Source of the DNA: Lytechinus pictus
Lineage: Eukaryota
Direction: 5' to 3'
DNA length: 64,000 bases
NCBI RefSeq assembly: GCF_037042905.1
Contig: NC_087251.1
Coordinates: 5,954,001-6,018,000, forward strand
Part shown: piece by piece, positions 7,373 through 38,921 of the stretch
Position numbering within the stretch: the stretch's first letter is position 1
How the letters are laid out: the number at the start of each line of letters is the position of its first letter
The notes under the pieces: generated by a model
Seen by the model: only the letters and a program-made list of their open reading frames with translations
Databases searched by the model: none
Told to the model about the DNA's origin: nothing
Position numbers and translations under genes: made by a program

Positions 7373-7567
7373 GCGCGATAGCTCAGTTGGTAGAGCGGGG
7401 GACTCGTATTCCGGTGACCCGGGTTCGATTCCCACTTGGTGCGCTAGTGCCCTTTGGTAAGGCATTAATCCTCAGTACCAGGTCCTTCGGAGGGGACCTT
7501 AAGCCGTCGGTCCTCTGGTTGCTTGCTTACAAGCATTCATGCTTTCTTAGCAATCAGGTAAAAAAAT
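7373..7567 (+). mobile_element. tRNA-derived SINE
   Basis: Pol III A box TAGCTCAGTTGG (7379) and B box GGTTCGATTCCC (7422), but the T-stem and acceptor stem are mismatched. Continues into a non-tRNA body (GTGCCCTTTGGTAAGGCATTAATCCTCA) and an A-rich tail. Confidence 0.75.
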
Positions 7568-16863: not shown

Positions 16864-17025
16864 TTAAGGAAAAGTTGATAAGTTTTCTTCACACTTTGGA
16901 TAGTTCTAATTTATATTACTATACATCAAAAAATTAAAGTGAATTTACTGAATCAATTACATGTTTAATTATATCAGCTAATTAAGCTTTGTGACGTACG
17001 GGACACACCATACTTTATACATAGG

Positions 17026-17639
17026 ATTATCTCAACCCAGACAAAATACACGAGAGGCGAGTAAATGCATTTTCCGTGGAGTTTAATAAAAATTGTTTCT
17101 GAAAAGCATCTTCCAAATGATGTATACCAAAATGTAAAATGATGTGTTGTCAAATAAAGCCAACATAATATAATGCAACAATCAAAACATAATAATATAA
17201 ACGTAAAGCCTCCTGAGATGTGTCATATGCGAAAAATTAAAGTTATTAAACCAATCTCCTCAATTGACAATTAAAACAGTCCATCCACATTCATGACAAA
17301 GACACCAGTTTGTCATGTTGGCCAAATGTGGGCAACGTAAAATTCCATCTGCAAAGCTACGAAGCAAAGATTCCCGTTTGCAACACGAGCTTATGCAGGA
17401 AAACTTTTAAAACAGAAACTAGTGCTCAGAAGCCCCACCAACGGCCCTGAACTAGAATGTGAACGAGGCAACGTTAATGTTCGGTCCGAAATGGAATTCG
17501 CTGGTGGCCTCATCCAAATCGGGTGACGAACCAAGCCCCGTTCACATTATAACATGAGGAGTGGAATATACGAAATTGGTCTAAATAAATGAAAAATATT
17601 ATCTCAGGAAGCCCAAAATAAGTGAAGAATCATAATGTG
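17026..17639 (-). repeat. Split direct repeat B2 (614 bp)
   Basis: Matches 18307-18920 (offset 1281). One substitution seen (17442 C vs 18723 T). Confidence 0.95.
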
Positions 17640-17902
17640 ATAGGAAAAGGCCGAGCTCCAGCAAGGGCGAAAACACCCCCCTGAACACCTGATGATAAAT
17701 TAACTAAACTGGTAAACCAAAGTAAAATACAAAAAGGTATCCAAAATTAGGTGAACAGGTTGGATGGAATTACCTTGCGGCCCACTTTGGGTGTGCGACC
17801 AGGCTTAAGGCCCGAAGCTCACATTCAGGTTAGAATGAATAACATGAAACAAAACATCTTGACGTTGAAAATTAGTGGGGGTGACAAGGGGATGGAGGAG
17901 GG

Positions 17903-18309
17903 AAAAATACAGGAAGTATGTTGCACAAGACAGGTGAATTGAGATGGAAGATGCTTTCAAATCGACTCCACGAAGAAGAATGCTAACTTGTTAGAAATTG
18001 GCTTTTGCCCCCTCCCGAAATTACCACGTCAGCTAACGCGACGTAGCATTTTTAGCCACGCCTCCTTGTAATGTCCGAAAAATACCAAAATTCGCAACGC
18101 AACATTTTTTGGCCACGCCTCCTCGTGAAGTCCGACAAAATACCATATTTGGCATCGCAACATATCTCCGCCAGGGCAAAGGAATTCGCCTGACCAGGCC
18201 CTTTCCTTGTAAAACACCTGTTACGTACCGCTGGCGGGCTATGTTGTTGTCCAGCTAGTCTGACCTGAGATAACCTCTCATTAACTCGCTGCGCGCGTTA
18301 AGAGGTATT
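17903..18309 (-). repeat. Split direct repeat A2 (407 bp)
   Basis: Matches 23688-24094 (offset 5785). Two substitutions seen (18195, 18291). Confidence 0.95.
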
Positions 18310-18920
18310 ATCTCAACCCAGACAAAATACACGAGAGGCGAGTAAATGCATTTTCCGTGGAGTTTAATAAAAATTGTTTCTGAAAAGCATCTTCCAAATG
18401 ATGTATACCAAAATGTAAAATGATGTGTTGTCAAATAAAGCCAACATAATATAATGCAACAATCAAAACATAATAATATAAACGTAAAGCCTCCTGAGAT
18501 GTGTCATATGCGAAAAATTAAAGTTATTAAACCAATCTCCTCAATTGACAATTAAAACAGTCCATCCACATTCATGACAAAGACACCAGTTTGTCATGTT
18601 GGCCAAATGTGGGCAACGTAAAATTCCATCTGCAAAGCTACGAAGCAAAGATTCCCGTTTGCAACACGAGCTTATGCAGGAAAACTTTTAAAACAGAAAC
18701 TAGTGCTCAGAAGCCCCACCAATGGCCCTGAACTAGAATGTGAACGAGGCAACGTTAATGTTCGGTCCGAAATGGAATTCGCTGGTGGCCTCATCCAAAT
18801 CGGGTGACGAACCAAGCCCCGTTCACATTATAACATGAGGAGTGGAATATACGAAATTGGTCTAAATAAATGAAAAATATTATCTCAGGAAGCCCAAAAT
18901 AAGTGAAGAATCATAATGTG
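18307..18920 (-). repeat. Split direct repeat B1 (614 bp)
   Basis: Direct copy of B2. Abuts A2 with a 3-nt ATT overlap, reconstituting the predicted circle junction. Confidence 0.95.
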
Positions 18921-19894
18921 TTGTGGCAAAAAATGGAATGCCGCCAAACGGGATGACTCATCGTCAGCCTGCCGCTACAACACAATATGATGCCAATAGT
19001 TCAAACCATGCTGTATTTACAAGGTCCACGCTAAGAAGCTGGGAAAAGGGGGGGTGCATTAAACGAACAGGGTTGCACAATTAAACCATCTAGGAGGATT
19101 CATGCTCATTCAGTCCACTTGCGAAGAGTCTAGTGCCCTAAGATAAAGGAGAGGCGGGGGGGGGGGGGGCGGGGCCTAGTAACTAAATAGTGAAGTTTGT
19201 AGTAAGGACATGAGATCTGATGATACCACGTGTGAGTTCTGGATAAGGTATTCAGGTCATAACATCTGCTCATAAAAAAGTTCCAACTGTTCGCGACGTC
19301 CGAGCCAGCGAGTCCTCGACGGAGGTAAAACAGCTGTTACTCTAGTGATTTCGCTCCGCGACAAAGAAATCAAGTGTTCTCCTGTTCGCGGATGTATTGA
19401 GTTTTAGGACCCGGCCACGTGCCGAGTAGTGAGGGCCCGCCCCCAACTAGAGCGGGACTGCCCGCGTCAGCGAAACGTGAATTGACCCCTTCCTCTTTTA
19501 CGATTCCGTGGAATGCTGACACAACCCACGTTGAGACTCCAAATAACTGCACATGGAAGAGAGAAAAGGAAAGAAACTGCGGCACCAATTGTACATTCTA
19601 AAAAGGGGGGGGGTACATAGTTACCATAAACACGATAAGTGTAGCAAAGACCACAATCTACTAACAGTGGGCGAGCAATTCTGCCTGCGCCCATGGAACT
19701 ATTAACGGGTAAGATAACCATTGCGTCACCATGGCAACAATCGAGAGAGAGAGAGAGAGAGTAAGGTTAATATTTACTGCTCGTTAGGGGTTGTCAAAAA
19801 ACAAAAACAAATAAACATTAGGTCGATATTAAATTGTGCACAAACTGGTATTAAACATAGAAGGGTGATAAACATACTGGCAAAATTGCTTAAA

Positions 19895-20815
19895 TTAAGG
19901 GGGGAGAGGTTGTCGAATATACAATCTGTGTGTGTTGGAAGCCCAGCGCCCCATATTTTGAATGCAAACATCGGGAACACCTGCCATGGCTGCAGAAGTT
20001 GCCGCCCCAATACGGAAAGAATGGGAAGAGAAATGAGCAACGGGTAGCCCGCAAAAACTAATGGCACGCTTTAAAACTTGGCCAAATTGGTGCCTCGTTA
20101 GGGGTGACGAGTCAAAGTGACGGAAAAAGGCAGAGCCGACCGAGCTCCGCAGAGCGAGGTAATCATTTACAGCGCGAAGTGGGCATAAATACGAAACAAC
20201 ATTCTGTGGAATTAAAATCGAGCATCCACGTCCAGTTTGATCTGTTTTAGACCTCGCAATCACAATGCGCAATTTTGCTTGATTACCCATCCCTTGAATA
20301 ATAACATCTTTTTCTGATAAAGGAACGGGTTCATGTCTAGATCGAGACGTGAACTCCCCTACTCGAAGAAAACCAAAGAAAGCGATTAGAAAGGCAGCCC
20401 GAAACAATGCCAGATCATACGTATTAACGCATACGTGAGTCAATGAATTTAGGATGGATTTGAGAATAGGCAGGGTTATGGGACACCGGGTATCACGGCG
20501 AGCATTTTTCCGCCTGCACCCGTCTACCAGCCGCCGGATTACAAACGCGTCAGTCACATCAGGCCAACCCAATGTTTGCATCGTAAAAGCCAGGCCTGAT
20601 ATATATGTACTTATTGTTGCCCCCGCATACCCATTCCAGGAGAGATAAGCAATAAATTGAGCGACCTGCTCAACGTCAGGACGTATACTTATATCATAAT
20701 GATATTGCAGCCGAAACTGCTTAAACACAGACCAAGCGTTCCTATAAGTATGATGAGTGCCGGGCGCCCGCGAAGAAAACAACAGATGCTCTCTCTCTAT
20801 ATGAAGCTGCTCCAA
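19895..20815 (-). CDS. Tyrosine recombinase of the retrotransposon (306 aa, intact)
   Basis: All catalytic residues are present: FLRVGE (R), RSKTDQ (K), SHSFRIGAAT (HxxR), MGRW (W), LYIR (Y). Confidence 0.95.
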   Translation of the reverse strand: MEQLHIEREHLLFSSRAPGTHHTYRNAWSVFKQFRLQYHYDISIRPDVEQVAQFIAYLSWNGYAGATISTYISGLAFTMQTLGWPDVTDAFVIRRLVDGCRRKNARRDTRCPITLPILKSILNSLTHVCVNTYDLALFRAAFLIAFFGFLRVGEFTSRSRHEPVPLSEKDVIIQGMGNQAKLRIVIARSKTDQTGRGCSILIPQNVVSYLCPLRAVNDYLALRSSVGSAFFRHFDSSPLTRHQFGQVLKRAISFCGLPVAHFSSHSFRIGAATSAAMAGVPDVCIQNMGRWASNTHRLYIRQPLPP

Positions 20816-22463
20816 AGATGGGCGGGAAGCTTGCTGCCAGCCAGATCTGCGCCTGGTGCTAACCTGCGAAACCTGTCCATCTGAAAACGAGAGAGGGCAT
20901 CAGCCTTTTCATTGCGAGAGCCTGGCACGTAACGTGCTTTGAACATAATATTATGTTTCAAACAAAGAACTACAAGCAAACGAACCAGTTTCATTACACT
21001 AGGACATTTCGAAGTTAAGGAATTAACAACATGAACAACTGATTGATTATCTGACCAAAATAAGACCTTAGAATTAGCTAGAAGAGCCCCCCACATACGT
21101 ATACCGACTACTATTGGGAAAAGCTCTAGAAAAGCGATGGAATAATTCTTCTCCAGTATTTCAGCTGGCCATTTCCCTTGAGCCCACTTATCCTGGAAGG
21201 ATATACCAAAGCCAATGCTACCCGCAGCGTCAGTAAAGAACTGAAAATGAGCATTAGTTACCCATGTTGAGTGTGAAAACATAACTGTGCCATTGAAATC
21301 AGACAGAAACGTAAGCCAGGCCTGCATGTCCTCTTTTGCGCCGCGTGAAAGCCTTATCCGGTGGTTTGGGTGCGGACCCCTTTAGTAAGATCGATAAGTC
21401 TCCTTAGGAAGGCTCTTCCGGGAGCCACGGCTTTACACACGAAATTAAGGCTGCCAATTAGCGACTGCAACTGCCGCAACGAGAGCTTATCTTTCTTAAC
21501 AAAATCAATGAGCATTGCCTGTAACACGTTTACTTTCTCCTTGGGTACCCGAACTCTCTGCTCAGCCGCGTCGATTTCAAGCCCTAAAAATATGATAGTG
21601 GGAACGGGCCCCTCAGTCTTCTCCTCCGCTATCGGGACGCCAAAAACCTCGCACATCGCCTTAAAATGATACATCAAGGAACGACATTCCTGCCGTGTTG
21701 CGCCAACGAAAAAGAAATCATCCAAATAATGCAAAATTTGCTCTGAATTCGCAATTTCACGGCAACATGACTCAAGAAAAGTGCTAAAACGCTCAAAATG
21801 GGCACATGAAATTGAGCAGCCCATTGGCAAGCATTTATCAAAGTAATACGCGCCATCAATGCAAAACCCCAGAAGGTCAAAATCGGAGGGATTCACTGGT
21901 AGTAAGCGAAAAGCGGATTTTATATCGGTTTTTCCCATGAGAGCACTAGCTCCCAAGCGAGCAACGAGATCAACCGCCTTGTCAAATGAAGTGTAATTCA
22001 CGGAACATAAATCGGAATCAATGTGGTCATTAACCGAAGCCCCCCGAGGAGAAGATAGATGCTGAATTAGACGGAATTCTCCCGGATTTCGCTTGGGGAC
22101 GAGCCCTACCGGGGAGCAGCGAAAGTTATCGAAAGGCGGGTCTTGGAAAGGACCTGACATTCTCCCTAAACTAACTTCCTTACCAACTTTCTCCAACAGC
22201 ATGTCCCTATGCTCCCTAGCTGATTTCAAATTACGCGAGAACACAGAGCGACGCTCGCCTGTGAAACCCAATGAAAAACCCAACCTAAAACCAGAAATCA
22301 GCAAAGCTGCATTATGTTGATTATGGTGCCGTCTAAGAAATGGGAGCATGCTGCCAAGTTTAATTGGAGTTGGAGCTAGGCTTCTGTTTGGTGATTGCAG
22401 CGGCAGAGTTGCAGGCGTGTGAGCCATGCGCTGCTGAGGAGCATTTTCCGCACCGGTGAGCAT
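20797..22463 (-). CDS. Reverse transcriptase / RNase H polyprotein, split by one frameshift near 21369
   Basis: ORF 22463-21354 has DIRS-type RT motifs (KTDIKSAFR, LPMGCSIS, HYLDDFF, FLGLEID). ORF 21327-20797 has RNase H motifs (FTDAAG, LELFPIV, SDNQSVV, ADALSR). Adding one base in the G3 run at 21368-21370 fuses them (..GVRTPNHRIRLSRGAKEDMQAW..). Confidence 0.92.
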
Positions 22464-23464
22464 AACGACAGGCGGTGCGTTGGCATGACCCAGCGTTAAA
22501 GGCGAAACAGACTGGTGAGGAGCGGAAGGGGGCAGGCGCCAGGGGCCCGAATTGCCCCTTGTCTGTTGGCATATCCTGAGGATGGGAAACTACCCCGCCG
22601 AAACGACCGGTCGTATGGCCGAAAGGGCTGGTTACCCCCAAAAGACGAAAACGCTGCTCGACCGGGCGTCGAAGCTACTGTCAGCCATAGCTCGGTGTCT
22701 ATGACAGCCCAGGAACGATGTGGATGACGGGCCTGACGTAACCGAAATTGAATGTCATAGGCCCGCCAATTGAAACCCCCAAAACGCACAATAGAGCGAA
22801 CGATATCCATATACTTGAGGAGCTCGCGCGCACGCATACAGTGTCGCTCCAAGTATATAGAGGCGTAAATAATGAACGCAGATGTCCACTGTTCTATGCT
22901 GGCGATCACCGGAGCCTTGCTTTGGGGGCGAAGCATTAAAGCGGACCCGGTGGCACAAAGGCTGAAGGCCTGCAACTGGGAACTTTCCTCACTTAAGCTT
23001 TCCCTTTTTAGTAATCCACCTAACTCTACAAATTCACCTTTCCAAATCTTCTCCTTAACACTGGAAGGCACCTCCCCGCCCAAATCATCACACACACAGC
23101 TAAGCATATCTGGCTGCGCAGACAGCGTAGGAAAAGGAGGGCTGGGGGCTGGTGTAAAATTATCATGACTATTAATCCCCTCAACTACAGGGGCAGGAGG
23201 GATAGAAGGAGAAGCTTGGGATTGAATTTGAGGAATGACCGGCTCTTGTGGAGAAGTCACAAGAGGCCAGGAGCCCCCCATTGTCCCGAACTCACCGTTG
23301 GTTGTCGACGCCGAACTTCCAGCAGCTGGGCTCTGCGTAGAAGTAAAAACTTGGCCGACGTCTGTCTCGAGGTCGACAGGAGAAGGCTGGCTGGCGGCAT
23401 CTCGGACCGAACGACGAGTAGACTTCCTCTGACTTAACTTTTTGCCTGGCTTAACCTTGGGCAT
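22360..23464 (-). CDS. Gag-like ORF1 with C-terminal Cys/His zinc finger, split by one frameshift near 22530
   Basis: ORF 23464-22496 has Ngaro-like ORF1 blocks (KEKIWKGEFVEL, IEQWTSAF, WRAYDIQFR). The zinc finger CFAFNAGSCQRTACRYAHRCGKCSSAAHGSHAC lies in another frame (to 22360). Removing one base from the G5 run at 22528-22532 fuses them. Confidence 0.85.
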
Positions 23465-23687: not shown

Positions 23688-24094
23688 AAAAATACAGGAA
23701 GTATGTTGCACAAGACAGGTGAATTGAGATGGAAGATGCTTTCAAATCGACTCCACGAAGAAGAATGCTAACTTGTTAGAAATTGGCTTTTGCCCCCTCC
23801 CGAAATTACCACGTCAGCTAACGCGACGTAGCATTTTTAGCCACGCCTCCTTGTAATGTCCGAAAAATACCAAAATTCGCAACGCAACATTTTTTGGCCA
23901 CGCCTCCTCGTGAAGTCCGACAAAATACCATATTTGGCATCGCAACATATCTCCGCCAGGGCAAAGGAATTCGCCTGACTAGGCCCTTTCCTTGTAAAAC
24001 ACCTGTTACGTACCGCTGGCGGGCTATGTTGTTGTCCAGCTAGTCTGACCTGAGATAACCTCTCATTAACTCGCTTCGCGCGTTAAGAGGTATT
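23688..24094 (-). repeat. Split direct repeat A1 (5' end; probable internal promoter)
   Basis: Copy of A2. On - it contains a ~58-bp tandem duplication, each unit with GGAGGCGTGGC (Sp/KLF-like), followed by TGACGT and CCAAT upstream of gag. The promoter role is inferred. Confidence 0.9.
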
Positions 24095-25793
24095 TCTATG
24101 TAATTCTAATTAGGGTTATTTTTCAATTAGGAGCAAAGATAAAGTAAATTGAGATAAATGATATTAGTTCAGTGGTTGAATATTGTTAAAAGGCTGATAA
24201 TAAAGTTATGAGCTTTTGTCTGGTCCCATACGTCACAGCGCATACTAATTAAAATATTACATCATAAATGGAATTGTAGATCATTAATTTTTTTACTGAA
24301 TAAAGAGGGCACAACTGGCCTTCCAAAATCCATAAAAGATTCTCTGTTGTGCATTTATTTTACACAACTTTAAAGTCTCTAAATGTCCCATACGTCACAA
24401 GTCAAATAGCTTGGACCTGCCCTCTCTAGTAAATATCAAAGTTTAGAGTCCTTTTCAGATGAAATGAAAAATTAAATCTTTCACCCTTATGTTACAGAGT
24501 AGACTGATACTGATATAAAATAAGTAAACTTAATAATCTTAGTATCTTGAATTATATCAGGGACAGATGATTTGCATTTTACCCAGTTTTGTAAAAAACC
24601 ACTTTTCAATATAAACTGTGCATTTAAACTTAAAAAGTCATAACATAATTTTCCATAATTTTCTATATTAAGAAGAATAGTGACATTACAAGAGAATGTG
24701 ATAAATTTGATCTAAAATTCAAACTCAAGTTTCCAGATATTGTTACAGAAAATGACATGACATCCTTTAAGCAGTGTTAAGATTTAAGTTTTTATAAAGA
24801 GCCAGTATGATTCATATATATTGATTGATCTTTATAAAGCACTAACATACCAGTATTACAAGTAATATTAAAAAAAAACAGTACACAATTTTCAATTTTT
24901 TTATTTCATCAATATAGATATAAAGTGATTTCTGCTCATGCTTTTAGAGTCATTTTTGTTCTCTCTTCATCATACTATTGAAAAAAATCTTGAATAAAGA
25001 TATAACAAGCCGGTCAAATATGTAGATTGTTCAAAAATTAGACCAAATATGCATCTACGATGCAATGTAGAATGGATAGATAGAAAGATATGTAAATGAT
25101 ATATATAAAAAAATGAAGAGATATGTGTAATGTTTTTAACCTTGTTTATGCAAACATTCTTTGTCCATTCTCATCCTGCAGTACCAGTATGTGTGATAAG
25201 TGAAAAATGCCTAATTTGATGTTATCTTGTTGCTTTATACTTATATTGATAAAAGCGTGTGATGTACTAAAGCTGACATTTCTAGGATGATATTTAGGTA
25301 TATGTACATGTGTTGAAAGAAAACATGTTATATGTATAAATATAAATGTTGGGATATTCACTATTGATTGAATAGATGATAAACTATAAAAAAACAATCA
25401 GATTAGCAATTATTCATAGACAGATAAACACATAACCCAGATAACAAGTTGTTATCAGAATGTGTCATTAGAGCTGTTCAAACCCACCTGACAAGGAAAA
25501 ATTGATATGTGATTAGCCAACCCAAAACCAACAATAAGTCGCCCAGAGATTTCATTGAGCTTGAAAAAACACATATAAAGATATTAAATGATTTGAAACT
25601 CAAATTTGAAGAAATTCAACAAGAGCTTCAAACAATAAGGAGACAACAATGTTTCAAGTTCAGGGTTCACTGAAGCATGAGTGTGCATATAGTCCACAAA
25701 AATTGGTGTTAAAAACTATTCTATCTTGTCTTTTTTTAATAATCAACTTTACGATTTCATTTTTTTGACTGCAAGAAGAAGAATTACTCTTTC

Positions 25794-32800: not shown

Positions 32801-35355
32801 TTCAGTGATATGCTCACTACTCAGCATTCTTCAGTCATTTCTACAAATTCAATTAATATATAGCTTGAGTTATTTGAAAAATACAACCAACCTCTTTATC
32901 TTATGATTGTTTGGTAACCTGTAACAAATTAAAATGATGAAATGAGTGAAACCAGTGATTTTTTTAAATTACTGGTTAATAAGTTAATTGATTTATATCT
33001 GAAATATGAGCACACATGCTATATTTTTAATATAGATATGTGCAAAAAATCAATAAACTTCTTAATCTCACTTCTCTAGTCATCTGCATATAATATTCAG
33101 TAAGTCAATATTGATGCCTGACATTAAATTTCTTTGATGACATACATTGGAATGATAAATGTTATAGTACATATTCATTTTTTATGATACTCGTATTGAC
33201 ATAGGTTATTATTAGTAGTAGAAATATTAGTAGTAGCAGTAGCAGCTTTTAAGGTAATGGAATGTAAAATAAGCATTCAGTCAAAGACACTTAAGTATAA
33301 ATTTATTATAAGATGACAATCTTCTTTTAATGAGATGGAGTGTAATTATAACTTATATTAAACTTGAATTAGAATTATCAATCAAGGAGTGCAATATGAT
33401 TAAATGAATACTTATTGTGAATTGTGACTTTGATATTAAGAAACATAGTTGATGCATGTATTATGTTTGTTCTTTAAATAAATATTTAATGAACATAAAA
33501 GTGGTATTTTTGATTGGCAAGCTTCTTGAAAAAAAATCACTACTGACTCTGTAAAAAAAAAATCATTTTCGTCCCTAGTGCAATTAAAACTATCTGACTT
33601 GTGAAACCCTGTTTGATAAACCAGTTTACATGGCACTTTTATTTCTTTAAAAAGCTTTTGTTCTTCTCCATTTCCGTTTTCAAATTGAGAAATAGGACAA
33701 GTTATCAGTGTTGTGGTTTTGGAAACGATTTAACAAATAGTGGCAAAGTTTACAAGTTCTACAAAAGCTCGTATTTCACCCTCCATTAACGATTGCTCCA
33801 GTAAAGAGTAGTTTACCTTCTTCTTGAAGTAACCACAAACATACTGTGTATTTGGTTTGATGAGATGTAAGGAACCTGTGGTCATTTTCCCTTTGCCCAC
33901 CAAATTGAAATAAATCTATTTAAAACAAAGTTAAAATTTGTTTTTATTTAAGTTAGTTTGGTGTTCTGAGATTGAATTTTAACAATATTTTGATTGATTT
34001 CTTTTTGTATTCTATATCAATTCACACATTCATTACTCTATCAAAATGTTAGAAATTACTTGTAATCATTTTATGTGATGTGGAGACAGAGAGGGATTTA
34101 TAGACCCCACCTCATTTACATTATTTTAGAGAGTTGGGCAGTATTTATTTGTTTTCGTTTGCCCTCTTTGTTTTCTTCTTCAAGTATTTCATCTGTATAT
34201 GACAAATTATGTTAGCTTGTTTTAAGAATTAGATCACTCCTGATGGAAATTTGTAGTTGATGTATAAAATTGTGTCATCCTGAGTTTATTTTCTTTGTAT
34301 TACCTGTTGTTTCAGGCCTATTTGCTATTAACGCAGATTAGAACAGATAATTTAACACAATGTTGATCTACATTTATTTTTTTATGTATGGCTTAGTGTG
34401 AAAGAACAATTACATGTGTCAAATGACCTAGTTTACATTCGTTTCATGACTCATCTTAGGTGGGATAAATTCATCATTAGATGATCAGTAATCGATGTCC
34501 ACCATCCCTGAACCATCCAATCACTCATGAATAAGTCATTAAAAGATAGATACGGCTTGATGGCATACTAACAGTACACATTTATGTAGGCTTCATCCTC
34601 AAAGAAAAATAAGTGTGTTAGTGTTCTAATTAAAATGATGGCCGTTGCCTACCATTAATATGCATTGTAGTGTTCTCAGTCTCTTTAATGCCACCATGCT
34701 CATGAATTGTGAAGCCGCCACTTACATTTGTAGACGGTCGCTGTCGTGTGCCCTCAAGCACATCGGAGGTATCTGAAATGGCGATTAATTTGTCAAGCCA
34801 GCTCACGCGATTCCCTCGGGGTTGTCACAAGGAATTTTGTTTGATGTTCTTTTGTTGGACAACACCTCTCTGGCCTCATTTACTTGCTGTCTTTTTTGTC
34901 TCCTATATTCATCATCTCACAATTAGCTTTGTTTCTCCTTCCAATTTGACATGTTTTTTTTCAAGTGTGTATTCCTTTGTTTTTTGTCATAGTTTTAAAA
35001 TTGAAGGCTGAACATCCAAAGTGTTACATTCATTTTGACAAGAATAAACACAAACACAAAAGCTAATATTTTTTATTTATAAGTCAAAATTTATTTCTAA
35101 GTCTGGTGGCTCTCTTGTAAGCTGTATGAGCAAATTTTTTAAGATTTAATTTCAAACAATAATTGTTTGTAAATTCAGACTTGGATAAGAGTCCTTGGAT
35201 CCTTTGAATCATCAGATATGAACCAATATATGTGCAGATAAATTAATGTAACAATCATGTATTGATGAATGTGATGAAAGTTATGTACCAATGAACAGTC
35301 TTTATTGTTAAGTTACTTACAGTTTTCCTTCTTTACTTCTTCTCATAAATTGCAG

Positions 35356-37436
35356 GTTCTGAAGCAAGTAGCACATACCCTGCTGTAGACATGACACCTT
35401 CCATGTACACCCATGCTCCTGCAGGTACCCTTGATTCAAAGAACAAACACCTGACAAGCCTTGAACTCCTGCACCATGGAACTAGAGACACCAACACCAC
35501 CAAACAGAAGGTCATTCATGTGGTAGCACCATTTGAACCAAGCAAGTCTGAGGATATGAAGAATGCTGGTATTAAAGCAGAGCCAAAATCAGAACCTGGT
35601 GAAGATGTTGAGCATGGTGAGCAGATGAGTGATATTCAGTTACCTGAAGCTTTTCGGGAAACAATCAAGAATCCAATTGCAAGATCAGTTCCTGAATTGA
35701 TGGAACAAGGGGTTGCTGTGGATTCAAAGGCCTCAGATTGCCATCTTCCTCACAAACCTTTACCCTCAAAACACACTTTAAAACAATCCATGCAGTCCTT
35801 GAAAGTCAAGCAAAATTCTGTAGTCAGCCAACAGGTTGTTGAGGTTGAATCTGACTCAAAGCCATGTCATGCAAATGGAAAAGGAGAATATAAGTCTGAA
35901 CCAAGGAAGCATATAGTAACTCCTCCAAAGGATTATTTTTCACATCAGCAGACATTGAAAGAATCCAAAGACTCAGCTGGGAGATCAGAGTTGAAAATCT
36001 CAGGGAAAACAGCATCTGCTCCAGATGTTAAGACAACTTGCGCATCAGGGAGTACAGGAAAAGCAGATCACCAATTCAGGTACCTAAACCAACAAAAGAA
36101 GGAAGCAGTGACACACAAGAGTAAATCACTCGGAATCAACATGAAAAGACTTCGCAAATCACCTGTCAAGAAGCTTGTTGAGGAAATTCCAGTCAGTTAC
36201 TCCAAAAGGAAATATGGAAAGAGGAGAAAAAAATCTGATGCATCCAGTAATGAGAAGAAAAGTGATATTTCTTTGGCCAGCAAGGGTATGTTGATATGTG
36301 ATGACAAGAAATCAGTTCATCCAAGAAAGGATGTCACTCTGATGGTTGACAAAGATCAACAGAAAAGGATACCAATGGAATCAAATAATCTGAAAGGGAA
36401 TCATTCAACATCATCAACATCAAGTACAGGTCATAAACACTCAAAGCATGAGGATGGAACAAGCATTTATGAGATTATAATCACACCTGAAAAGAAAAAG
36501 AAACATAGAAGTAGGAAGAGGAGTCTTCAAATTATAGATGATAGTGTCATCAAAAGAACTAGGACAAAACGTACAACATCAGAAATGATTGAAATGAAAG
36601 TAGTGGATGATTCTCAAGGAAGTACAGAGAAATGTAGTTTAGAATCCTTGAACTCTCCTAGCTCCAGTATGAAACAATCAGAGGCTGGGTTATCATCATC
36701 TGAATCCTCAACAGAGCAAACATCTTTGCAATCTAAGATGCACTTTCTTTCAAGGTTACAGGTAGCAGGAGATAACAAATCAGTCAAGCTTTCTCTGTCA
36801 TCTTTGTCAGGGACACCAACCTCTTCATCATCAACAAAGTCTTCATTACAGAGTTTTATGAGACGGTCTTTAGAAAGTAGCCCATTACCAGAACAGCTTA
36901 CTAAAACTGCATTAACATCATCAGAGAGAAAGACTGATGCTAAAATTGTTCATGAACATTCGATTGGAAGAAACAAACTAATGCAAAGGGATATTCCTTT
37001 GCTTTCATCATCATCACCATCACCATCATCAGCAACATCGTCATCACCAGATTTGATACCTTCATCATTATACCCATTATCATCATCAAATAGTCATCCT
37101 TCTCAGCTTGTAACCAAGCAAACTTCTCCAGCTTTACAAATCAAGAAATTATTTGGAGGATCATCATCCAGAGACTCGTCCACACCTCAAGAATCAGTAA
37201 CAGTAGCTCCAAGGCAACAAAGAAAACATTCTTCTCAGCAACGAGTAAAAGCATCTTCCATCCAACATAGGAAACCATCTCCCAAAGAACAAAGGACAGC
37301 TTCCCACATGCAACAGAGAAAATCAACCACCATGAAATGGAGGAGAGTATCACCCAAGCAAGAGAGGAAAGCATCTCCCAAGGTACCAAAGAAATTATCT
37401 CCCATGAAACAGAGGAAAGTGTCTTCCAATGTGCAG
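35356..37436 (+). CDS. Large exon encoding a Ser/Lys-rich low-complexity C-terminal region, probably of the kinase gene
   Basis: 2081-bp open frame (ORF 35391-37484) bounded by polypyrimidine-TGCAG| and CAG|GTAATT. Its phase-1 start is compatible with the 5968 donor. Linkage to the kinase exons is inferred. Confidence 0.8.
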
Positions 37437-38921
37437 GTAATTAATATATTACATCCATGCTGTAATTCTAATAGGGATGTATAACATCCTTAGTAGGACC
37501 AAAGAACAAAGACTTGATAAGGTCTAACCTGCAATGTTAACCATAGACTACTCAATTATCTATAAACTAGATTATCAGATATACTATTAACTAGAATCCC
37601 TCTATTCTTATTAACATTTCCTTCACTTGAACATGCTCTGCTAAATGAGAAAGACATTATGAAAATCTTTAGCAAGTCCATTCGTACAGTCCTTCATTGG
37701 GAACTTTACTTTGTTCTTCTCACAAAAGGTTCAGCAACTCAAGTTTGGAAATAATTTCTTAATGCTCCTTTATCATATGTAAATATGGTGTCATTGGAAA
37801 GCATGGTTGTAACCCATTAAAATAAAGATAAAGATGCAACCATGTTATAAATAGAATATTGCACAATTGATTGTTTTCTGTAATGAATTCAAGGACAGAC
37901 CGAGTTTGAATGATATTGATGTATTGATGTGTGATGTCCACATGTGTATTTTCATTTACAAAGTTAAGTTTGGTTGGAATAATGTTGAACCCTGTCATTT
38001 TAGAAAAATGTTAGGATGTAAACATGAAATTGGTATGACTAGAAAACTTTATTATTTCCCTTTACAATGAGGTATCATTTGTTTTGATTACAGAAGTATA
38101 GAACATCATAGTAAACACAAGTATAATTTTTAATTTAAATAATGGATTTATTGTTTTCTTTAGTCAGCCCACCTGTGTGCTTTGAAACACCTGTATTAAG
38201 TGCCCTATAAATGTTATTATTATTATTAAGAGGAGTAATTACCTTTTCCAGAGGGCCAACCCTAATTTTGTTAAATACAGGTATGGGAATGTGCAATTAG
38301 TGTGACTTGGGCCCCATAACATTCAGCTTGGCCACCGACCATTACAATCAATCATAGATATCAGCCCCACAAGCAATCCCTAAGCTTTATGTTACAGGCC
38401 AAGGGTGGTGTTTCACAAATCATACTCCATTGGTGTGACATATGATTGCATCACTACATTGGTCAGATCACACTGATGGGGCACACACTACTGTGTTATA
38501 TCAATGAGCATACATGGTTAATATTATGTTTGCGGTGACACTTAATCACATCTTTTATTCTGATTTAAATGTTTGTGAAACTGCCCCTCGTTTTGTACAC
38601 ACAGTAATGACAGAGAGTCTAATGAGTCTCTGAATCATCTCTAACTGCTATTAACTGCTATTTAGAAGTTGCAAATCCCTAATACTAAAAATGAATTTTC
38701 AATGTAAATATTAGTACTATTGTCACCAGGAAAATAAAATCACTTGAAAGTTCAGGAAAAACTTCTTGGGCTATTAGAGAACCTCATTAGATGGATTTAA
38801 CTTAACAAACAGCTTTATAAAACAAGGCCTTCCTGATCTAATTACCAATTTGTCTTCTTTATTTTATTCTATTTTTATTTTTTTATTTGCAATGTTCATC
38901 AATTTCAATCCTAATCTCCAG

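Follow-up and report, generated by a model that had tools for sequence, protein, structure and literature searches.

The locus considered here raises the question of whether the non-coding tail of a retrotransposon carries a signal that acts at the RNA level and, if so, what that signal marks. The retrotransposon, 7.1 kb long, lies on the minus strand of a 64,000-nucleotide stretch of Lytechinus pictus DNA (the window), and five segments in its 3' part, here called modules i to v, had been read in a preliminary description as copies of one RNA motif, in which an outer stem encloses two small hairpins and UUCCAU follows. We analyzed these modules within the window and compared the tail of the element with the tails of its relatives.

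The element and the modules in its tail

The element is a young Ngaro-type retrotransposon with the layout A1-ORFs-B1A2-B2. Like other Ngaro retrotransposons, it has split direct repeats (A1..B1A2..B2), and its genes run from gag through RT/RNase H to the tyrosine recombinase; the same layout, A1-[ORFs]-B1A2B2, is given for Ngaro (order DIRS) in PMC9210276, PMC8547959 and PMC3783388. Along the element, the order is A1, gag, RT/RNase H, tyrosine recombinase, U1, B1, A2, U2 and B2:

23688..24097, minus strand: repeat A1, the 5' end of the element, 99.3% identical to 17903-18313
22423..23464, minus strand: gag-like ORF (similarity to the first ORF of a relative; translated frames)
20797..22589, minus strand: RT and RNase H, here split over two frames (Pfam RVT_1 and a weak RT_RNaseH match; tblastn frames)
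19895..20899, minus strand: tyrosine recombinase ORF (PF00589)
18303..18920, minus strand: repeat B1, 99.7% identical to 17023-17639
17903..18313, minus strand: repeat A2, overlapping the end of B1 at the recombination junction (repeat comparison)
17023..17639, minus strand: repeat B2, the 3' end of the element (repeat comparison)

The recombinase was 100% identical to a Lytechinus pictus protein. Many Ngaro relatives differ from the window element in having an SGNH hydrolase ORF after the recombinase, which is absent from its tail, and no methyltransferase domain was matched by Pfam in its four ORFs. Two frame breaks were present despite repeats that are more than 99% identical in the same copy: the Cys/His zinc-finger part of gag lies in another frame than the gag-like ORF (break near 22530), and tblastn placed a second break between RT and RNase H near 21375.

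Several other observations were made in the window. A strong hairpin spans the B1/A2 recombination junction (18334-18255, minus strand; z -5.3 sense, -6.0 antisense), where the crossover core is approximately AAT, and it may form in single-stranded DNA. Repeat A contains a tandem pair of 56 nt (18163-18037, minus strand) with GGAGGCGTGGC in each unit. Two raw RNA runs gave 27 and 44 reads, mostly on repeat A and probably antisense, with no pile-up of ends or joints; the reads over 17866-18317 covered repeat A only, and their loose end continued into a different flank, as would be expected of a host transcript that runs through another copy. Strong tracts resembling 3' splice sites were seen on the minus strand in U1 (19598, 19547 and 19138), together with an AAG/GTAA donor-like site in module v (17774). 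Elsewhere, the plus strand carries a 711-aa Ser/Lys-rich open frame with no Pfam match (35349-37484), which is probably a host exon, and one tRNA-Thr-like gene (7373-7444).

The modules, the repeat copy of module iv and the hexamer on which the later argument turns are as follows:

19681..19740, minus strand: module i, doubtful, weakly like iii, with an RFX X-box-like palindrome and other look-alikes of factor sites (z -0.8; scan for consensus sites)
19505..19545, minus strand: module ii, a lone hairpin with a bulge, GTGG..CCAC, whose status as a module is doubtful (folding)
18916..18985, minus strand: module iii, with an outer stem over the U1/B1 edge, an inner hairpin and a bulge containing TGGCGG and TTCCAT (folding, boundary descriptor)
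18941..18946, minus strand: TGGCGG, candidate start of minus-strand synthesis (B1-edge motif in relatives)
18737..18829, minus strand: module iv in B1, a long stable hairpin (z -5.1)
17456..17548, minus strand: copy of module iv in B2 (repeat comparison)
17751..17822, minus strand: module v, in the unique spacer U2, a diverged paralogue of iv with a weak fold (likeness of iv and v z 5.5, fold z -0.4)

All five segments were found where they had been described, and TTCCAT indeed occurred seven times on the minus strand within 19740-17456 (at 19698, 19558, 18938, 18777, 17949, 17769 and 17496), versus twice on the plus strand. The occurrence at 17496 is the B2 duplicate, and the one at 17949 is not in a module but is part of a 14-bp pairing between A and B. 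The folds proposed by eye held only in part. The outer stem of iii (pair probability 0.98), its hairpin 1 (0.84) and the 14-bp stem of iv (0.98) were recovered, whereas the outer stem of v had a probability of 0.00 in context and hairpin 2 one of 0.00-0.07 in ii, iii and v. Only iv folded better than its shuffles (z -5.1), while i, ii, iii and v did not (-0.8, -1.7, -1.8 and -0.4, respectively). The idea that G-U pairs restrict the stems to this strand was only partly right: an A-C mismatch of the iii outer stem corresponds to a G-U pair on the other strand, and iii and v folded better antisense. No single layout was common to all five modules, for which RNAalifold gave 0 pairs. TCCA took part in pairing in ii and iv but was unpaired in iii and, for the most part, in v.

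Six TTCCAT were counted in 2255 unique bases of the tail, compared with 1.4 expected; this excess did not survive a look-elsewhere test, some hexamer being equally extreme in 98% of 300 shuffles. When 30 hexamer contexts were ranked by how alike their members are, those of TTCCAT came 1st and 3rd, near the 95th percentile of the best value obtained from shuffles, and this likeness of flanks came mostly from two pairs of modules, iv with v (z 5.5) and iii with iv (z 3.3). The other eight of the ten pairs were unremarkable (i with iii, p 0.10). The alignment of U2 with the beginning of B (p 0.007) points to an old duplication. Modules i and ii are probably unrelated or decayed, and nhmmer searches with each module singly found no other module.

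The suggestion of a ribozyme fared no better: at E<=10, the sole Rfam match in 7.6 kb was mir-29 in the RT ORF (E 0.85), with no ribozyme family and no HDV-like match. By eye, CTGACGA in iii and GATGAG..GAA in iv look like parts of a hammerhead whose remaining core is missing, and a pseudoknot between the hairpin-1 loop and CCAY cannot be drawn alike in all five modules. A pattern built on i and iii gave 22 scattered matches in viral contigs, below the roughly 50 expected by chance (hand estimate), and in the window it matched iii only. Among the variants listed from four sequencing runs, none of 19 substitutions and none of 12 indels in the tail fell inside a module; these counts cover the listed entries, beside 129 more substitutions and 19 more indels, with modules making up about 15% of the tail and module i poorly covered.

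A TGG at the B1 edge in related elements

We assembled 120 loci with related recombinases, which are distant from the window element (best full-length identity 44%); no such relatives were found in viral contigs. Comparison of the tail of the window element with the relatives' loci (80, then their successors) by blastn gave no match (best E 0.41). TTCCAY was not enriched in the tails of 80 loci (64 sense vs 59 antisense), and the UUCCAU descriptor matched 6 times sense and 12 times antisense in 193 kb of relatives' tails. With neither a consensus fold nor enrichment in these tails, the repeated three-way junction with UUCCAU could not be upheld. On the other hand, TTTGGCGG was enriched, occurring in 10 of 87 tails versus 2.1 expected.

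A near-identical tail repeat was present in 28 loci, of which four were dropped (a tandem, an inverted duplication, a microsatellite and a duplicated contig); several loci had no visible A repeat, and the repeat was there assumed to be B. In 23 of the remaining 24 loci, a TGG started at -6..+2 nt of the 5' edge of B1, compared with 4.25 expected, this range having been set after seeing the data. After removal of two near-duplicates, the count was 21 of 22 distinct elements (4.0 expected), which placed TGG at the top of all 64 trinucleotides; the median recombinase identity of these elements was 34%. The single exception was the window element itself, whose TGG begins at -26. In a held-out set of 11 extra loci, 10 had no B pair, and the one usable locus agreed, but it resembles L085.

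Identity between B1 and B2 mostly started at the GG just past the T, and B2 often had an extra G before it. Downstream of the edge, only TGG and a G-rich run were conserved, with no long primer-binding site. Positions -4..-1 before the TGG were mostly C or T, which argues against a polypurine tract upstream of the repeat. No HDV-like layout (P1 from the G, P3-L3-P1' downstream) was found after the GG in 22 loci. Folding at the B1 edge was no better on the sense strand (z -1.5) than on the antisense strand (-1.8). In a subgroup, an outer stem with its 5' arm in U1 encloses an inner hairpin, and TGGCG sits in the bulge that separates this hairpin from the stem's 3' arm. Across 11 relatives the outer stem covaried, with two-sided change in 15 cells (0/500 shuffles, better than slid controls), a result that relatedness can inflate. 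The covariance model R2, built on these 11 relatives, gave 21 matches in 100 loci, all of them sense and downstream of the recombinase; 10 lay outside the training set, one being a near-duplicate and most being weak. An earlier model, R1, rested on a poor automatic structure. Other loci showed a stem in which hairpins flank the TGG to the left and right, which echoes the layout first proposed for the five segments, but the constant feature is the TGG and not TTCCAT.

Some features of the relatives were recorded separately. An RFX X-box-like palindrome, GTTGCCATGG(T)NAC, at 19738-19725 in the window recurred 200-600 nt after the recombinase in the tails of L044, L046, L050, L054, L064, L067, L069, L074 and L076. 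The recombinase-SGNH interval of L002, L003 and L005 contained repeated TTTCAG/GTAA-type joints resembling microexons or recursive splice sites. L085-L117 included large contigs with eukaryote-type Ngaro elements in several bacterial or archaeal MAGs, probably contamination by host DNA.

In the window element, the edge lies within module iii, which is likely to be homologous to the B-edge element of the relatives. Its TGGCGG at 18946 is the only one in U1, 26 nt before B1 (the other copy in the tail is at 18173), and the chance of finding this hexamer within 30 nt of the B1 edge is about 0.006. A boundary descriptor, which passed 10 of 21 boundary sites and 28 of 247 control TGGs, passed 6 of 48 TGGs in the tail of the window element, among which module iii had the lowest folding cost, while i, ii, iv and v failed. 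Contigs of a related species showed two joints between U2 and B, one at 18920 and another at 18935 (a distance of 11 nt from the TGG), so that the B edge has drifted within module iii. The covariance models were less favorable. Module iii was not found in the window by R1 or R2 at E<=10, and R3 placed it at E 5.2 (rank 12 of 21), which is not significant; the models probably miss it because most of their weight lies in a G-run stem, which is absent from iii. The claim of an RNA-level signal in cis, tied to the B1 boundary at module iii, is supported by the relatives; a repeated UUCCAU motif is not.

Predicted long-range pairing and a candidate start of reverse transcription

A helix scan pointed to two upstream segments with complements in the tail:

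23391..23412, minus strand: early-gag segment predicted to bridge the tail
23730..23743, minus strand: segment of A ending in TTCCA, 14 bp complementary to B 17115-17102 (= 18396-18383)

Gag 23412-23398 is complementary to the inner 3' arm of module iv (15 bp, -24.9 kcal/mol), while the overlapping stretch 23401-23391 can pair over 11 bp (-18.3 kcal/mol) with the TGG site of module iii, the two helices being nested in order. Their duplex energies of -27.1 and -19.5 exceed the costs of local opening, which are 9.8 and 4.3, with a further 6.2 to open the gag stretch as a whole. Six helices of <=-21 kcal/mol joined the ORFs to the tail, compared with 1.2 expected (0/600 tail block shuffles) and 0 antisense; significance fell to p 0.025 when the ORF side was shuffled, and the excess was not general (86 vs 79 in 46 relatives). 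The best upstream partner of the TGG site lay 4300-3100 nt before the recombinase end (5'UTR/gag) in 11 of 17 elements, a range chosen after seeing the data; the expectation was 3.5 when based on other TGGs and 4.6 when the flanks were shuffled (p 0.001). At 8-16 bp, these partner helices are short, and they are spread over 1.2 kb; the partners vary in sequence as the sites do. The A2 counterpart of the TTCCA-ending segment is at 17958-17945. The A-B pairing 23743-23730/17115-17102, which a second helix of 10 bp adjoins, is a candidate for 5'-3' cyclization. Apart from these pairings, modules iv and v are each followed by a GTTCAG..CTG(G)AGC hairpin, and the two hairpins are alike (18736-18700 and 17690-17650, minus strand).

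Our preferred explanation, which we hold tentatively, is that module iii is this family's copy of the B1-edge stem with its TGG and marks the start of reverse transcription. The invariant TGG suggests a primer ending in CCA, which would pair at the TGG of module iii and could be either a host tRNA with a short pairing or the gag segment of the element itself. Minus-strand DNA synthesis from the TGG would then proceed upstream through U1 and the genes to A1, and the nascent DNA would jump from A1 to A2 and copy B1 back to the priming site. If the upstream template were already degraded at that point, synthesis would run off and jump to B2, and run-off there would place the start of B1/B2 identity at the TGG or slightly downstream of it, which is what is seen. 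The gag segment may cyclize the RNA through the gag-iii, gag-iv and A-B pairings, either gating the TGG site or supplying the primer. Modules iv and v would have arisen long ago by duplication of a single unit, an origin that would account for most TTCCAT copies, and UUCCA may have a role specific to the family. A broader version appears speculative and somewhat unlikely: split-repeat retrotransposons with a tyrosine recombinase would prime at a structured B1-edge TGG from their own gag CCA stretch (or a minimally paired tRNA end) after the RNA circularizes, and in this sea-urchin family the signal would have multiplied into UUCCA modules that clamp gag.

The main rival accepts the B-edge element as a real RNA signal but replaces priming by another event at T/GG (cleavage of the RNA, arrest of the polymerase or initiation of the transcript), which would force the jump to B2. 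It fits the start of B1/B2 identity at the GG after the T and the extra G often found in B2, and an edge of this kind would result wherever the RNA had a fixed 5' end. However, the 22 loci lack an HDV-like layout after the GG, Rfam matched no ribozyme, and the invariant T before the GG suits pairing with CCA better than a mere end; we regard this explanation as rather unlikely, if a serious competitor. A clearly lower probability falls to the view that the five segments are copies of one UUCCAU motif that is peculiar to this echinoderm family and serves in Gag binding or packaging. In its favor, the TTCCAT contexts are the most alike of the 30 (borderline after correction), a descriptor fitted afterwards occurs 5 times in the tail versus 0.14 expected, and TTCCAY is retained in otherwise diverged paralogues; against it stand the missing consensus fold, TCCA being paired in two modules and free in two, the non-significant hexamer and the absence of enrichment in distant relatives.

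Two further explanations dispense with a five-copy RNA signal and appear improbable to the same degree. One takes the segments as DNA-level clusters of enhancer or promoter sites, whose palindromes would mimic hairpins. The consensus sites noted here are an RFX X-box at 19738 (p 0.002), an AP-1 site at 18960 that forms hairpin 1 of iii, a CEBP-ATF site at 19728, Sp/KLF sites and TEAD-like sites at 19516 and 18941, and the X-box is also found in the tails of several relatives. Most of these presumed sites are not individually significant, and they leave the 14-bp stem of iv, the B-edge TGG, the covariation and the strand-specific gag helices unexplained, although such sites may account for modules i and ii alongside the priming explanation. 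The other holds that, apart from the iv hairpin, the modules are neutral remains of old tandem duplications plus chance and that iii is not homologous to the relatives' element. The weak folding z values, the failure of the covariance models to find iii and the alignment of U2 to the start of B all agree with it, but it has to contend with the low chance (~0.006) of a TGGCGG within 30 nt of the B1 edge, with the probability of 0.98 for the outer stem that spans this edge, and with the gag helices.

Relation to known priming systems

In LTR retrotransposons and retroviruses, the primer-binding site starts with TGG, which pairs with the CCA of a tRNA. The B-edge element resembles such a site in its invariant TGG at a repeat edge and in its structured setting. 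The positions differ, the LTR/retroviral site being behind the 5' LTR and the Ngaro TGG in the 3' part, at the first bases of B1. Moreover, unlike a tRNA primer-binding site, the Ngaro sequence varies within a few bases after the TGG, with no long match to one tRNA.

Self-priming in Tf1/sushi (PMC7175516) is similar in that the candidate priming site finds its complement within the RNA of the element itself. Priming from the first bases, as in Tf1, does not appear to fit here, since the best partner (23401-23391) lies some 700 nt inside the element, counted from its 5' end. The predicted pairing in the window element also resembles that of Ty1, in which a 5' segment, CYC5, pairs with CYC3 in the 3' region near the priming site (PMC7969010). 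It would differ from Ty1 in that one 22-nt gag segment is predicted to have two neighboring partners and the candidate priming site is on the 3' side. Tf1 self-priming and Ty1 cyclization are thus the nearest models, each of which differs in geometry. CYC5 itself lies inside GAG.

For DIRS-1 and DIRS elements, the primer for reverse transcription is stated to be unknown (PMC7192593). The available portions of PMC9210276, PMC8547959 and PMC3783388 contained no mention of a primer site, a PBS or a B-edge hairpin. A B-edge TGG was not described in the portions seen of the literature on YR elements, including PMC7192593, PMC9210276, PMC8547959, PMC4157794, PMC3783388 and PMC6681497, and an earlier mention is possible in the original Ngaro papers, Repbase notes or supplements; nor was the window element itself described in the available parts of the literature searched.

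The five-copy UUCCAU motif as first described would matter less, because it was not found outside the family in the loci examined. A TGG fixed at the B1 edge across recombinases that are only about 34% identical names one nucleotide position and predicts the 5' ends of the cDNA. It also offers a reason for where the B repeats begin and a simple landmark for the annotation of such elements. If true, a start primed by gag would be an undescribed priming route, which would also explain how split repeats are rebuilt.
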